Positions 53,606-59,016 of a stretch of DNA of 64,000 nucleotides are shown here, piece after piece (position 1 is the first letter of the stretch; the number at the start of each line of letters is the position of its first letter). Made by a program: the position numbers and the translations under genes. The stretch comes from Candidatus Bathyarchaeota archaeon. GTDB taxonomy: Archaea; Thermoproteota; Bathyarchaeia; TCS64. The notes under the pieces were generated by a model. That model ran no database searches, was not told the origin of the DNA, and saw nothing but the letters and a program-made list of their open reading frames with translations. The stretch spans positions 30,462-94,461 of the forward strand of contig JBDRQD010000057.1 in the NCBI GenBank assembly GCA_043826455.1. Reading direction: 5' to 3'.

Positions 53606-54919
53606 TTGCCCCGAAAAACGCGTTGGAAGCACCTCATAGAGACAGATGATGACTTTAGGAGATGGTATCAGAACCTCTCGCGCGGGAGCGTCAACACAGC
53701 GAAGCTGAACGCGCGAACCCTGTACCGTTTCTGCAGCATCACAGGCATGGTCCCAGCCCAGGTGGTTGAGAGGGCCAAGGACGATAGGCGTGGATTCGAG
53801 GACGTACTCCTCGACCTCGTCACCAGGCTCAGGGAGGAGGGAAAGGCACCAAGTTACATAGAGAATTATATTACGTGTGTGAAGAGTTGGCTTCAGTTCA
53901 ACGACGTGACCCTGGTGAGAAAGATCAAGATAGGGAACACAAACCACACACCCACCATCGAGAATGAGAGAGTCCCCATGAAGGAAGAGCTACGGCAAAT
54001 CCTGAATTACACAGGGGAACGCGGAAGATGCTCAATCTCCCTGATGGCTTTCAGCGGCCTCAGGCCCCAAGTCCTGGGAAACGGCACAGGCACCAACGGC
54101 CTGGAGATAAGAGACCTACCTGAGCTAGAGATCAATGGAAAAGAAGCCAACTTCAGCACCATACCCGCCATGGTCGTTGTTAGGCCTGAGCTTAGCAAGG
54201 CCAAGCACAAGTACTTCACCTTCCTCGGCCCTGAAGGATGCGAATATCTGAAGGCTTATTTAGAGAAGCGGCTGGCCTCCGGGGAGATGCTGGATCAAGA
54301 CTCAGCCATCATCACCTGCAAGGAAGGTTACCAGGAAACTGGTTACAGAGCTGCTCAGCGGGATAATCAGCATATAACAGTGAAGACTTTGACCAAGGAG
54401 ATCAGGGATGCCTTGCGTCCAAAGTACAGGTGGAGACCATACGGTCTCCGGGCCTACTTCGACACCCAGCTGCTGGTGGCCGAGAACAACGGCAAGATAG
54501 CCCACGCCTACCGCCAGTTCTTCATGGGCCACAAGGGCGACATTGAGGCAAGGTATACCACCAACAAGGGCAGGCTCCCCGAGAACGTCATAGAGGACAT
54601 GAGGGAAGCCTACCGGAAAAGCCTGGAGTACCTTGAGACAGGGAAGCAGGGCGTCTCGGAGGACAAGCTGAGGGACGCGCTGCGTCGCCAGCTGCTGCTG
54701 GTGGCTGGGTTCAGCGGCGAGGAGATCGATGATTTGGACCTGTCGATGGATGACACTGAGTTCCAGGAGACAGTGCGAAAAAAGCTTCTTGGTTCGATGG
54801 TTAATAACGGGAACAACCAGCGGGTCGTCAGCCTCGATGACGTTGAAGAGTACCTGTCCCGTGGCTGGAACTTCGTGGCCAGGCTGAATGACGAGAAAGC
54901 AATACTAAGACTACCTTAA
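53606..54919 (+). CDS. Tyrosine recombinase/integrase
   Basis: SGLRP (R), SKAK (K), YGLRAYF, MGHKG, RYT (Y). Confidence 0.9.
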   Translation: MPRKTRWKHLIETDDDFRRWYQNLSRGSVNTAKLNARTLYRFCSITGMVPAQVVERAKDDRRGFEDVLLDLVTRLREEGKAPSYIENYITCVKSWLQFNDVTLVRKIKIGNTNHTPTIENERVPMKEELRQILNYTGERGRCSISLMAFSGLRPQVLGNGTGTNGLEIRDLPELEINGKEANFSTIPAMVVVRPELSKAKHKYFTFLGPEGCEYLKAYLEKRLASGEMLDQDSAIITCKEGYQETGYRAAQRDNQHITVKTLTKEIRDALRPKYRWRPYGLRAYFDTQLLVAENNGKIAHAYRQFFMGHKGDIEARYTTNKGRLPENVIEDMREAYRKSLEYLETGKQGVSEDKLRDALRRQLLLVAGFSGEEIDDLDLSMDDTEFQETVRKKLLGSMVNNGNNQRVVSLDDVEEYLSRGWNFVARLNDEKAILRLP

Positions 54920-55221
54920 ACATATGATTAACAACCTAGTACTCGCAAAAAACAAGATATTAAATTATTTTAAAGGTAGCGGGGGATAGATCTATACAAG
55001 CGTTTAGACTGGCGAGTTCAGGATTGTAATAATTATAAAAAACTAAGATGGATTTCCTTTGAGAGAGTCAACCGCACAATAATATGAGCAAAGTGATTTA
55101 ACTTAACATACTCTTTTTTAGTTGATATACAATTTCTTCTTCGCGCGCGGGTTCTTATAGAAAGAACCTGACAAGGCCAAGGAACAAATTGAGGCCTTGG
55201 CTGTGCAGAATATAAAGTTGT

Positions 55222-55587
55222 TTGAGTTTGAAAAGACGCTGGAAGGAACTGATGATGAAAAGAAATTGCCAAAAATCGAGGCATATATTTTATAATCGAG
55301 AAGTCGAGGAATGGAGCCAACAAAAATTTACTATTAATACGGTAACTTTTAACAACGATAGGTATTCAATAAAAGAGAATATACATATTTTAGATGAAGA
55401 CAATAAGATTCTCTACCACAGCATACAGATTCAAAGATCTTATAAGACGCAAAAAGGAAAATGGCGATATTCAAACGAAAAGTTGAATATACCTGTAGAA
55501 TTTTTCAAAAAGTTTGTCTCGTCGCTTGGTCAAATCGATGTGGACAAGTTAATTGAGGAAATGAGCCAAAAGAAAGATGAAGGCTAA
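55222..55587 (+). CDS. Hypothetical protein, possibly PC4-like nucleic-acid binding
   Basis: IQIQRSYKTQKGKWRY...LNIP; start uncertain. Confidence 0.5.
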   Translation: MSLKRRWKELMMKRNCQKSRHIFYNREVEEWSQQKFTINTVTFNNDRYSIKENIHILDEDNKILYHSIQIQRSYKTQKGKWRYSNEKLNIPVEFFKKFVSSLGQIDVDKLIEEMSQKKDEG

Positions 55588-55744
55588 CCTAATCTGAATC
55601 AGATAATTCGGAGAAGTGACAATTATAGATTATGAATACAAGTAAACCTGTTTGATGTTACGCTCCGCGCGCCAGCGTGTTGCTCTTATGTTGAGGTTTC
55701 TCCTTCCTCGTCTTCTTCTCCTTCATTCCTGTTCTTAACGTTTC

Positions 55745-55885
55745 CCTTGACCCCGCCGGGGCCTCCCAGACGGCATTCTCTTATCCGCGGTCAAACCGTG
55801 TAGCCGCATTATGGCGTTCCGCCTGACGACACCACAATCTAAATTACGCGGTCCAGCCCGCAAGCAACAAGGTCGGGGTCACACA
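55745..55885 (-). ncRNA. Putative bridge/seekRNA of the IS1111-type element
   Basis: Closing stem TGACCCCG/CGGGGTCA; two loops with guides TGTTGCT/AATTTAG (target) and GCCAT/ATAAGAG (donor). Confidence 0.8.
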
Positions 55886-55897
55886 CACGTTCCAGAG

Positions 55898-56905
55898 TCA
55901 GATCACCCGGCACCGATGCACCGGATCCACCACACCCGGCCCGGGATGATGCGGCTCATTATTCCACAGCATCCAGTACACCGTCTTAAGCATCTTCCGG
56001 GCCGTCGCCATCACGGCCACCTGCTTGGGCTTCTTAGCAGCCAGACGCCCGTAGAACCGTGTCAGGTTCGTCTCGTGCCGCAGGTGAGCGTGCACCGCCT
56101 GGGTCAGCCCCCACCTGAGCCACCTGGAACCCTCCCGTGTGATGCCGCCATGGTGGGTGCTGCCTCCACTCCGCCTCACCGTGGGCACCAGGCCAGCGTA
56201 GCTGCACAGCTTCTGAGTCAGGGAACCGGCGCACATCGCCTATCTCGGAGACCAGCAGCAGCGCAATGTAGTAGCCGACGCTTGGGATGGTTGTGAGAAG
56301 CCTCGCACGGGGATTCTCGCCGCACATCCGCCTCAGGTCCAAAGACATCTTCGCGATCTGCCTGTCCAGGGTAGCCATTACTGGCATGACCTGGTCCACA
56401 GCCTCCAGCCCCAGGCCCCGCAGCAGCTCCCGCCCCTCCCTGCTCCAAAGGGGCCTCCCAGGCCTTATGGCGCGCTTGGCGAACTCCGCGTGGATCCTGT
56501 TCTTGAGCATGGTCCGCATACCCACCAGAAACGCCCTACGCCTCACCCGATCTCTGAGTTCACGAATATCTCGGGATGGCACGTATGACTCGGGTATAAG
56601 GTCAGCCCGCAGCAGGTGGGCCAGGGTCTCCGAGTCTAGTCGGTTTTCGCCCGAGCCTTGGCGATGGCCTTCACCTCCTTCGGGGGGGCGAGCTTCACGT
56701 GGTATCCCAAGCTCTCTAGCTGGTCGTATATGGGCTGCCAGCAGTAGCCTGCCTCCATGACCACCAAGGCCTCATCGAGGCCTTGCATGAACTCCTCAAG
56801 GCCTTGGTGGTCGTTTGTGAACTTGGCCTGTTTAGCCACTTTTCCCTTCTCGTCCATCACGGTTCCATAGCATACTTTCTTGTGGACGTCCAGTCCAACA
56901 TACAT
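55898..56905 (-). pseudogene. IS110 DEDD recombinase, two frameshifts (~56638, ~56215)
   Basis: GLDVHK, MEA, KTD..DS, TIPSVG, YAGLVP..RSG, ARK spread over three frames. Confidence 0.9.
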
Positions 56906-57041
56906 CAATCTGCTTCTCCTCCTATCCTATGGTATGGTTTAACCCATTTGAAAGAAGGAGAAACCCAACATGCCATCTAAATTCTCTGGGTTAACTCCTA
57001 CATGCAACAAATATCCGAGTATGGTTTAGACTCAGCTGAAG

Positions 57042-58026
57042 ATGGAGAAACATGAGGATGTAACATCCATCCTCTCCAAGCTCAACCTCCAAGACATAGA
57101 ACAGACCATCTCCCAACCATACCATGAGACAGGTCCAGGCAGGCCGCCCCAAAACCCGCTTGGCATCTTCAAGGCGTTGATTGTGAAGCAGCTTAGGCGT
57201 ATCCCCAGCGACAGGGAGCTCTACCGCCGGCTATGGAACGACGAGGCCCTCAGAGAGGACTGCGACATCGAGGAACGTGAGAACCCCTACCACCCATCCC
57301 AGCTCACCAGGTTCAGAAACAGGGTAGGAACAGAGAGGCTCGAGTGCATCATGGCCAGCCTCCTAGAGGAACTCGTTGAAGAAGGCGTCGTTAAAGGTGA
57401 GACCCTGGCCCTGGACGCCACCTTCATCAAGGCCTGGAGCAGGCGGGACCCAGCGGACGACAGCCGCGGCCTCTCTGACCCTGAGAGCCGCGTGGGAAGA
57501 GATGGCAAGATATATGATCTGGGCTACAAGGCTCACGTGGCTGTGGACGTCGAATCTGATATGTCGGTGGCCGCCGTCGTGGCTTCGGCTAACGAGAACG
57601 AGAAGAAGCACGCCGAGGAGCTCATAGAGAAGGCTTCGTTGGTGGTTGAGGAGGTTAAGAACGTTGTTGCGGACAGCCAGTACAGCAGCGAGAAGGTTAG
57701 AGGCTTCGTCGAGGAGCTTGGGGCTGAGCCTGTGATTCCTTACATGTCTAACCAGAAGCGTGGTGAAGAGGTGCTTAGGGTTGACAGGTTCTTCAGGGTC
57801 AGTGGGCCGGAGGAGGAGAGGAGGATCTACGGGTTGGGGAGGGCGTCTGTTGAGAGAGTGAACTCCAGGCTAGATCTGGTGGGCTTGGGTGGCCTTAAGC
57901 TAAGAGGTTTGAAGAATGTCGCGGTTCACGTGTTGCTGTTTAATCGTGATGCTGATTGTGGCTGTGACTGCTGTTCGGCTTGGTAGGTCCTGGAAGGCTA
58001 GATCATTGTCTTCGTTCTGGTGGTGA
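57042..58026 (+). pseudogene. IS5/IS1182-like DDE transposase, frameshift near the C-terminus (~57938)
   Basis: GPGRP, LDAT, GYKAH, ADSQY, RASVER; tail LIVMLIVAV...FWW* in another frame. Confidence 0.8.
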
Positions 58027-58152
58027 GGAGGTTGATTTAAACATGTAATTTGGCAACACGCTGGCGCGCATCCTTGCGCCTATGTACTCGCTAGCCCCTG
58101 TAATCAAGATCTTCAATGCGATTACCTACTTTTCACATGTAGTCAACATGCA

Positions 58153-59016
58153 TTATGGTGCATCGAGGTCAATGATGACCGGAGCGTGGTCACTGGGTTT
58201 TCCCATCCTACCTACAGGCCGACGTTCCTCTCGATCGACCCACACCCGCTCCACCATATCCACCACTCTATCGTCGCCGAGAGCGAGGTCGAAGCGGAGC
58301 CCCTCATTACGATTGAAGGCATCCTTTTTGTATGGCCACCATGTATAGATGCCCGGCTTTTCGGTAGTCACCCGCAGGAGATCCCGTAGCCGATTTCCCT
58401 GCATTTCTTTAAGCCACGACCGCTCTTCCTCCGTGCAGTGAATGCGATCCCGAAGCCCCTCAGGATCCCAAACGTCGCGGTCGTCCGGAGCTACATTGAA
58501 ATCACCCACAACAAGGAGAGACGGCGTCTTCGACAGGCTCTGTAGCCATTTCCCCATTGCCGCCATCCAGTACTGCTTGAGTTTGAACTGATCGCTTTCT
58601 CTCGCCTTGCCATTGACCACATATACGTTAACCAGCCGCAGTTTCCCCACGCATGTAGATACGACCCGTGCTTCATTGGGCACAGGGTCACCAGGGAAAC
58701 CTCGCTGCACATCTGTAGGTAAACCGGGTCCGCTCGCCACGCCAATGACTTCACGATGTGGGTCGTCCGCGTCAAATGCCCAAAGATTACACCGCCGGGT
58801 GTGGTCGCGAACGAGTATCGCAACACCGTTATAACTGGGCTGACCGTGTAGTACAATATTGTACCCGGCAGCACTTAATTGCATAACGGGGAAGCCGCCG
58901 TTGGAGGCCTTCGTCTCTTGTATGCACACAACATCCGGTTTGTGACGACGCAGGACTGTTAACAATCGGGGCAAGCGGGCGCGTACTGAGTTTATATTCC
59001 ACGATATGACGCGCAT
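58153..59016 (-). CDS. xth: Exodeoxyribonuclease III
   Basis: SWNINS, QETK, YNGVAI, GDFNVAP, YTWW, SDHAP. Confidence 0.92.
   Translation of the reverse strand: MRVISWNINSVRARLPRLLTVLRRHKPDVVCIQETKASNGGFPVMQLSAAGYNIVLHGQPSYNGVAILVRDHTRRCNLWAFDADDPHREVIGVASGPGLPTDVQRGFPGDPVPNEARVVSTCVGKLRLVNVYVVNGKARESDQFKLKQYWMAAMGKWLQSLSKTPSLLVVGDFNVAPDDRDVWDPEGLRDRIHCTEEERSWLKEMQGNRLRDLLRVTTEKPGIYTWWPYKKDAFNRNEGLRFDLALGDDRVVDMVERVWVDREERRPVGRMGKPSDHAPVIIDLDAP

Follow-up and report, generated by a model that had tools for sequence, protein, structure and literature searches.

The stretch of DNA analysed here (the window) comprises 64,000 nucleotides of contig JBDRQD010000057.1 from a Candidatus Bathyarchaeota archaeon (GCA_043826455.1, positions 30,462 to 94,461 of the forward strand). 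The genome assembly consists of 2.95 Mb in 81 contigs, is 97.7% complete with 7.2% contamination, and contains an archaeal signal recognition particle RNA (126 bits against an Rfam cut-off of 96.5). At 55685-56978 of the window, on the minus strand, lies a 1294-bp insertion sequence (IS) of the IS1111 type (IS110 family), one copy of its CT/AG core dinucleotide (56977-56978) included. It carries a transposase pseudogene (55898-56908) and, beginning about 10 nt past the transposase stop codon, a predicted bridge RNA or seekRNA gene (55736-55888), and it interrupts the left terminal inverted repeat (TIR) of another insertion sequence that is IS5/IS1182-like. Judging from the sequence comparisons presented below, 55685-56978 is very probably a decayed archaeal IS1111-type element that was guided by RNA into the TIR of its IS5/IS1182-like host.

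The junctions of the element are exact. On the plus strand, ...GCGCGCCAGCGTGTTG-CT is followed by the element end CTTATGTTGAGGTTTCTCC..., and at the other junction ...GGAGAAACCCAACATGCCAT-CT is followed by AAATTCTCTGG..., with the core dinucleotide CT duplicated at 55683-55684 and 56977-56978. Joining 55684 to 56979 gives ...CAGCGTGTTG-CT-AAATT and rebuilds the left TIR of the host element. With CC in place of CT, the restored 17-mer has a single match in the window (58047-58063, minus strand; 0.01 expected by chance), and the outer 17 nt of the host TIR are a perfect inverted repeat (55667-55683 versus 58053-58069). Contig C69 of the same genome contains a 78.5%-identical copy of the host element (approximately 603-1715) with the repeat GCGCGCCAGCGTGTTGCGATATT at each end; the left end of the window's host element minus 55685-56978 aligns gap-free and base for base to the C69 TIRs and on into the interior, although in both C69 TIRs the core position is CG and the right half of the target differs. 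A solo right-end fragment of the host element with TGTTG-CT-TTATT is also found on C69 (10593-10704). Contigs of three other (soil) metagenomes (X2, X3 and X4) match the window to 55684 and resume at 56999, with 20 different letters replacing 56979-56998; these are related host elements with an uninterrupted end. The outer part of the host left TIR, ending in the core CT and serving as the left target, is accordingly placed at 55667-55684 on the plus strand from the inverted repeat, C69 and X2-X4, and the rest of the host element at 56979-58075, comprising the inner left TIR (AAATT...), the transposase and the right TIR ending at approximately 58069-58075. The host transposase is a DDE enzyme encoded by an open reading frame (orf) of 314 codons (57042-57986) with Pfam domains PF01609 and PF05598; its top NCBIfam models are IS1182 and IS5, with every score under the cut-off.

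Within the element, subterminal inverted repeats with a 12-nt perfect core (55695-55706 and 56954-56965), or 18-19 nt with one indel, occupy 55688-55706 near the RNA (3′) end, with 3 nt left outside, and 56954-56971 near the transposase (5′) end, with 7 nt left outside. Such repeats, of 7-17 bp and with brief terminal extensions, characterise the IS1111 group; those of the element are conserved in relatives, of which the full-length ones measure 1279-1300 bp between identical end motifs. The non-coding DNA from the stop codon (55898) to the element end measures 213 nt, versus 70 nt upstream of the start. The DEDD transposase pseudogene consists of three frame pieces (56636-56908, approximately 56220-56635, and 55898-56236). 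Pfam domain PF01548 (DEDD_Tnp_IS110) was detected on the piece 56636-56908 (E 1.1e-11) and PF02371 on pieces 56034-56582 and 55898-56236 (E 2.5e-5 and 1.2e-11). The intact relative P0001, a protein of 337 residues with both domains and a score of 263.9 bits to NF033542 'IS110 family RNA-guided transposase' (cut-off 140), aligns by tblastn in frames -3/-2/-3 with 87%, 80% and 96% identity, with breaks near 56636-56640 and 56205-56218, where contigs of relatives carry four additional nucleotides (at 56634/56638) and two (at 56214). Residues D6, E51, D89 and D92 and the motif G-L-x-P-x4-S-G are invariant across 25 homologs, and from their position in the family these four acidic residues would be catalytic. 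The window copy retains all four, but the first frameshift splits D89 from D92. The N-terminal coding part of the pseudogene also contains a perfect 14-bp hairpin (56759-56812). A preliminary description of this DNA had proposed that excision of 55685-56978 restores a host TIR, that CT stands at both junctions, that subterminal repeats lie 7 and 3 nt from the ends, and that the recombinase has two frameshifts; each of these proposals is borne out by the comparisons above.

Relatives of the element were collected by protein search, which returned 104 homologs of at least 320 residues. Twenty-five were aligned (A1), and the loci studied are the best 80 of 364 metagenome relatives and the best 80 of 584 genome relatives found with that alignment (the window being locus L001). 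Among the best 80 genome loci, the nearest named relatives of the transposase are from Bathyarchaeota metagenome-assembled genomes (MAGs; 67% identity), followed by Hadarchaeota (48-51%), then Thermoplasmata and Woesearchaeota; relatives below approximately 41% are mostly Actinomycetota. By DNA comparison, the element was found in seven of 60 related genomes searched, six of them of the same genus. No second copy was found in its own genome, only two short fragments on contig C44 (169-307 and 2149-2326, on opposite strands) that match the transposase gene with 69-72% identity and are probably remnants of a more distant IS110-family element.

A pattern search run on all loci turned up 49 copies of the non-coding module downstream of the transposase gene; the 45 distinct sequences among them make up alignment A2, from which a covariance model (R1) was built. 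R1 finds the window copy with 140.5 bits (E 2.3e-51) as its sole match within 64 kb, a score that attests to uniqueness in the window and is not independent support because the window sequence sat in the seed. It has 68 hits in the window and L002-L100, located downstream of the gene in relatives. Among L101-L176 it matches only L101 and L102, which are archaeal loci (Thermoplasmata, Woesearchaeota), and none of the bacterial loci; with filters off it does not match the IS4321 locus (best E 0.69). A weak hit on a Natrinema plasmid (L178, 1035-1183; 9.9 bits, E 0.003) lies immediately ahead of a 42%-identical IS110-family transposase gene rather than downstream of it. Two same-strand hits are present at each of L100 (1209-1349 and 2486-2626), L047 (290-424 and 2466-2609) and L061 (1-119 and 2474-2616), suggesting tandem or nested copies, or solo RNA modules.

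The consensus fold of the 45 sequences by RNAalifold is a tandem of two modules, each with a stem, an internal loop and another stem. Module 1 is formed by the helix CCC(C)/GGG(G), an internal loop and the helix UGCGG/CCGCG, and module 2 by the helix GGCG/UGCC, an internal loop and again the helix UGCGG/CCGCG. With two pairs added, 94.6% of 854 cells are paired, versus 31-59% after sliding the 3′ partners. Stems of the close set of 45 are almost invariant, with changes on both sides in five cells. Distant hits outside the seed have compensatory stems, UGUAG/CUACG together with UGAGG/CCUCG in L062, L064, L070 and L076, UGCAC/GUGCG in L101, and CCUC/GAGG in the base helix. The preliminary description had placed two parallel loops within one closing stem, TGACCCCG/CGGGGTCA; the two loops are retained, whereas the single closing stem is replaced by tandem internal-loop modules. 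The helix TGACCCCG/CGGGGTCA was rejected as a consensus feature because its CCCC (55878-55875) serves the better-conserved base helix of module 1, pairing with the GGGG directly after the right target guide in 42-44 of the 45 sequences; the two pairings are mutually exclusive, and only 74.9% of cells across the 45 relatives pair in TGACCCCG/CGGGGTCA, which might still form as an alternative or 3′-terminal hairpin. In the window copy the base helix is CCCC/GUGG (GUGG at 55835-55832), and the mismatch is a derived defect because relatives have C where the plus strand of the window has A at 55834.

The two internal loops contain four strands, here named by the IS621 terms, at the minus-strand coordinates given in the preliminary description. 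In loop 1, the 5′ strand UGUUGCU (55863-55869, left target guide) is identical to the left target plus core of the plus strand, and the 3′ strand AAUUUAG (55839-55845, right target guide) is the reverse complement of the core plus right target. In loop 2, the 5′ strand GCCAUAA (55809-55815, left donor guide) agrees over 5 nt with the element end GCCAT while its last two bases mismatch the core, and the 3′ strand AUAAGAG (55778-55784, right donor guide), when reverse-complemented, gives CT followed by CTTAT, the opposite end of the element. Read in the orientation of the transposase, the target is AATTT-AG-CAACA, to which UGUUGCU is complementary and AAUUUAG identical; the strand complementary to the top strand is located 5′ of the strand complementary to the bottom strand, which is the IS1111 order of guides. 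In this orientation all elements have the form 5′flank-AG-ATGG(C/T)ATG...CATA(A/G)G-AG-3′flank.

The target guides vary together with the DNA outside the element, which was the check that the preliminary description had called for. To compare the 5′ strand of loop 1 with the 3′ flank, seven of the 49 loci were set aside for a strand not ending in CT (L023, L028, L030, L033, L035, L048, L058) and three for having no 3′ end or flank (L037, L054, L065); 38 of the remaining 39 are non-redundant. Over the 5 nt by the core, 140 of 190 positions are identical in these 38 loci, versus a mean of 67 (standard deviation 7) in shuffles, none of which reached 140 in 10,000 trials. At least three contiguous nucleotides match in 27 loci, two in five loci, and one or none in six. 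The class of guide goes with the class of flank: TGTTG/CGTTG with CAACA/CAACG, xGAG with CTC, TGAT with ATC, and AATTT/TTTTT with AAA; the guides CGCTAGG, CGCTTGG and GCTCACG match at 7/7 positions each. L025 counts among the weak cases only through an artefact: the terminal 21 nt of this element are repeated in tandem ahead of the true flank, which matches at 7/7 positions. The 3′ strand of loop 1 matches the 5′ flank at 48 of 55 positions in 11 non-redundant loci (shuffled mean 34.1, with 4 of 10,000 shuffles doing as well); a match of 6-8 nt that takes in the core is present in another eight loci, and six near-identical L027-type elements have ...TAAAC-AG against the guide UUAAACAG.

Distant relatives, unused in the rule by which the guides were framed, agree with the close set. 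Their 3′ ends were located in seven of eight loci; exact-pattern searches for their 5′ ends found none, and these ends were read from the sequence upstream of each gene. The guide TTTTTACT / UUUUUACU adjoins AG followed by TAAAAA, matching at 8/8 positions in L062, L070 and L076 and 7/8 in L064; L076 and L064 are one base apart in the 3′ guide, and the 5′ flank of L076 follows. A single base distinguishes the guide of L078 (CTCCCCCGC / CUCCCCCGC) from that of L099 (TTCCCCCGC / UUCCCCCGC), and the flanks of these two loci, GCGGGGGAG and GCGGGGGAA, are one base apart as well. In L066, 6 nt are matched at the 3′ flank and 8/8 at the 5′ flank. The elements of L078 (approximately 2216-2390), L099 (approximately 2477-2650) and L062 (approximately 1039-1250) are inserted at, or a few bases from, the 3′ ends of apparent tRNA genes; one of the distant tRNA-adjacent relatives is from a Hadarchaeota MAG, and the core in L078 and L099 is TG, not AG.

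The donor guides vary with the ends of the element itself. At its variable A/G position, the 3′ strand of loop 2 has the same base as the element 3′ end in every one of the 47 loci compared (A type, 31; G type, 16). This agreement stands for few independent switches because the loci are related; one switch occurred inside a single subclade (L045 versus L043 and L097). Where the 5′ end was located without the guide, the 5′ strand of loop 2 matches it at 5/5 nt in 13 of 15 loci, with one mismatch each in L004 and L024. The pairs of donor guide and element end are GCCAT/ATGGC, ACCAT/ATGGT, TCCAT/ATGGA and GTCAT/ATGAC, a set that is partly circular because some of the ends were searched with the guide. 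All four loop strands co-vary with flanks or ends, the 5′ donor strand leaving the core uncovered.

Insertion into the ends of another insertion sequence, which the preliminary description had proposed from the window alone, recurs among the relatives, in both types of end and in diverged host lineages. At least ten loci (L001, the window; L005, L007, L012, L018, L019, L023, L056, L069 and L073) end in AG followed by a 16-17-nt CAAC...CTGGCGCG-like TIR remnant and then by unrelated DNA, the outside flank being different in each. The interior side is of the left type in the window (...GAGAATTT) and of the right type in L056 (ACATGTAATTT, as in the window's own right end). L005 still has a left TIR that is free, along with residues 1-147 of a host transposase (62% identity) and a remnant of the element that ends in the opposite TIR. 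Host-like transposases lie beside the elements of L005 (62% identity), L037, L036, L042, L048, L071, L083 and L084. A second subfamily (L027, L036, L042, L061) with guides CGCUAGGCU or CGCUUGGCU is located 9-11 nt inside a different, GCGCGC-ended terminus, with a 35-43%-identical host-like transposase directly adjacent in L036, L042, L048 and L071. Elements with other classes of guide are at AT-rich sites or beside tRNA genes, so that TIR homing is a property of sub-lineages, set by their guides.

These loci bear on the possibility that a single ancient insertion into a TIR produced a composite that then spread with the host element, the recurrence being no more than descent. The TIR-resident copies are 74-87% identical to the window copy and share the same TIR position, and the host transposase could move such a composite if it still used the interrupted end. 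However, copies occupy the left-type end in the window and the right-type end in L056, the adjacent host transposases are as little as 35% and at most 62% identical, the second subfamily has other guides and another terminus, and members of the clade with other guides sit outside TIRs. Moreover, the guide fits the TIR variant that is occupied, TGTTG with CAACA or CGTTG with CAACG (L018, L019, L073). Descent from one accident is therefore a very improbable account.

The genome of the archaeon contains no free exact copy of the 12-nt target; it has eight sites with one mismatch, among them the right TIR, which differs from the target only at the core (CC). It is plausible that this end escapes insertion for want of a CT core, and in L056 and L005 elements do occupy right-type TIRs that possess the core. 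Protection of ends by CC or CG cores would be consistent with the behaviour of IS621, which is described in PMC11208160 as tolerating core mismatches poorly. Host-type TIRs with CT are free in L084 (approximately 295, minus strand; TGTTG-CT-AAATG) and L017 (188-204; TGTTG-CT-ATATT), on contigs that each carry a related element elsewhere, so a CT core alone does not imply an occupied end.

The following course of events is proposed on the basis of what has been established for other members of the family. The element would be excised as a circle with the junction ...GCCAT-CT-CTTAT... on the plus strand, and the DEDD recombinase would bind an RNA of approximately 130-150 nt presumed to be made from the DNA directly after its gene. 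Loop 1 of this RNA would pair with both strands of the target (TGTTG-CT-AAATT) and loop 2 with both strands of the circle junction, whereupon strand exchange at the common CT core would insert the element. The programmed target would be a 12-nt stretch of an IS5/IS1182-like element, placed 16 nt into its TIR, and the element would therefore live within the ends of another insertion sequence.

Several observations count against this interpretation. The last two bases of the 5′ donor strand (GG, AA or AG) never match the core, and the first base of this strand disagrees with the element end in the subfamily of the L027 type. The 3′ flank is unlike the 5′ target guide in six of the 38 loci (L012, L024, L034, L036, L053, L055), and the shuffle test overstates independence because the relatives are related to each other. 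Most of the structural covariation comes from a few distant sequences because the stems of the close clade hardly vary. The fold of the window sequence taken singly is no better than that of shuffled sequences (z = 0.19), so that the support for the RNA structure consists of comparison with relatives. An Rfam scan of 55000-58500 with E up to 10 gave matches to microRNAs and snoRNAs at chance level only (best E 0.59), the microRNA-like ones owing to the hairpin at 56759-56812. Contigs of RNA run X20 cover 55981-56214 and 56677-56857 at approximately 93-95% identity; they are parts of the transposase genes of relatives, possibly carried over as DNA, and are no proof of transcription, while RNA runs X21 and X22 contain next to none of the sampled words. 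No circle-junction joint is listed among the contig runs, in which rare forms are dropped. Lastly, the window copy is broken and is the sole copy in its assembly.

Two frameshifts, a G that has become U in the base helix of loop 1 and the lack of a second copy in the assembly mean that the element of the window has lost its autonomy. It might still be moved in trans by the transposase of another copy, given that its four guide strands, its subterminal repeats and its two ends are preserved and that the use of a seekRNA, as far as PMC11187229 describes it, is not confined to very closely related transposases. The assembly, however, offers only the C44 fragments as partners (repeats may be missing from it because it is a 97.7%-complete MAG), and the base helix of loop 1 carries the derived mismatch due to the A at 55834; continued mobility is very improbable. 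Hardly credible is the notion that the matches reflect DNA sites in the 3′ non-coding region, copies of the ends and target that serve in protein binding or recombination, and that no guide RNA takes part: no transcript was observed here and the donor-matching 7-mers are near the element end, but the loop strands co-vary with flanking DNA outside the element, are set in internal loops of conserved helices with compensatory changes, and match top and bottom strands around a shared core as in the proven systems (PMC11187229; PMC11208160).

An orf of 437 codons (53606-54919, plus strand), approximately 750 bp upstream of the host element, gives no more than weak signals of a tyrosine recombinase (E 1.5e-4 and 21 bits to the archaeal XerA model, whose cut-off is 220; E 0.015 to Phage_integrase) and may lie at the edge of an integrated element.

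IS4321 and IS5075 are members of the IS1111 group that insert specifically into TIRs of the Tn21 transposon family, as Partridge and Hall reportedly described in 2003. The element of the window is like them in having one fixed position and orientation inside the TIR of another element. The IS4321-family protein, the sole named IS1111-group member compared, is only 26.3% identical to the transposase (95% of the query, E 3e-14), and the host there is a Tn3-family transposon, whereas here it is a small archaeal IS5/IS1182-like insertion sequence. The IS1111 type as defined in PMC11187229 has subterminal repeats, a downstream non-coding region, a transposase of 330-350 residues with GL-P----S(t)G, and a seekRNA with its top-strand match in 5′ position, four features that appear from the sequence to hold here. 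The likeness extends to ISEc11, ISKpn4, ISPst6 and ISPa11 (PMC11187229, PMC11208160), which share with the relatives of the window element a DEDD transposase (337 residues here) with GL-P----SG, and to the group's long downstream non-coding region, subterminal repeats with short terminal extensions and duplicated dinucleotide core, as given in PMC11187229. Differences from the IS1111 group are the archaeal host, an R1 RNA found in archaeal loci only, and a 5′ donor strand without core pairing. Bridge RNAs are predicted in 93% of IS1111 elements, at the right end, many with multi-loop donor binding, according to the account in PMC11208160; compared with those orthologues, both loops here are simple internal loops on identical UGCGG/CCGCG stems, and this tidy twin-module RNA is the only structural peculiarity of the element.

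IS621, as presented in PMC11208160, resembles the element in its recombinase, which belongs to the same family, and in its two-loop bispecific RNA, whose four guide strands surround a CT core. It differs in that its RNA is encoded in the left end, ahead of the gene, the order of its guides is reversed relative to that found here, its core takes part in all four pairings rather than three, and its subterminal repeats are only 2-3 bp long. RNA-guided IS110/IS1111 elements and TIR-homing members of the IS1111 group are already known, and the mechanism was described in 2024. A preprint of that year counts 662 archaeal IS110 recombinase homologs (10.1101/2024.06.21.599552). A literature search for IS110 with Bathyarchaeota or Bathyarchaeia found no paper, although the supplementary lists of PMC11208160 and PMC11187229 may include archaeal members.

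A further-reaching reading would have the archaeal IS1111-type clade as a specialised parasite of IS5/IS1182-like elements, with guides co-diverging with the TIRs of at least two host lineages, core variants acting as escape alleles (CC in the right end of the window's host; CG in both C69 ends and in the free end of L005), and the twin-module RNA as a distinct archaeal class. This is a speculative proposal and rather unlikely as a whole. The preferred interpretation, a decayed RNA-guided IS1111-type element in a host TIR, has strong support from comparison among relatives as far as guide function is concerned, and it leaves the known mechanism unchanged. It extends RNA-guided IS110/IS1111 recombination to uncultured archaea, at Bathyarchaeota-like, Hadarchaeota, Thermoplasmata and Woesearchaeota loci, with natural evidence that covers all four guide strands. 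The compact two-module RNA comes with a natural series of retargeted guides, whose targets include AT-rich sites, the termini of insertion sequences and apparent tRNA-gene 3′ ends, and this series could inform the design rules of bridge recombinases. In biological terms the element is a clean archaeal instance of an insertion sequence that has its niche in the ends of a different one, comparable to IS4321/IS5075 and the Tn21-type transposons.

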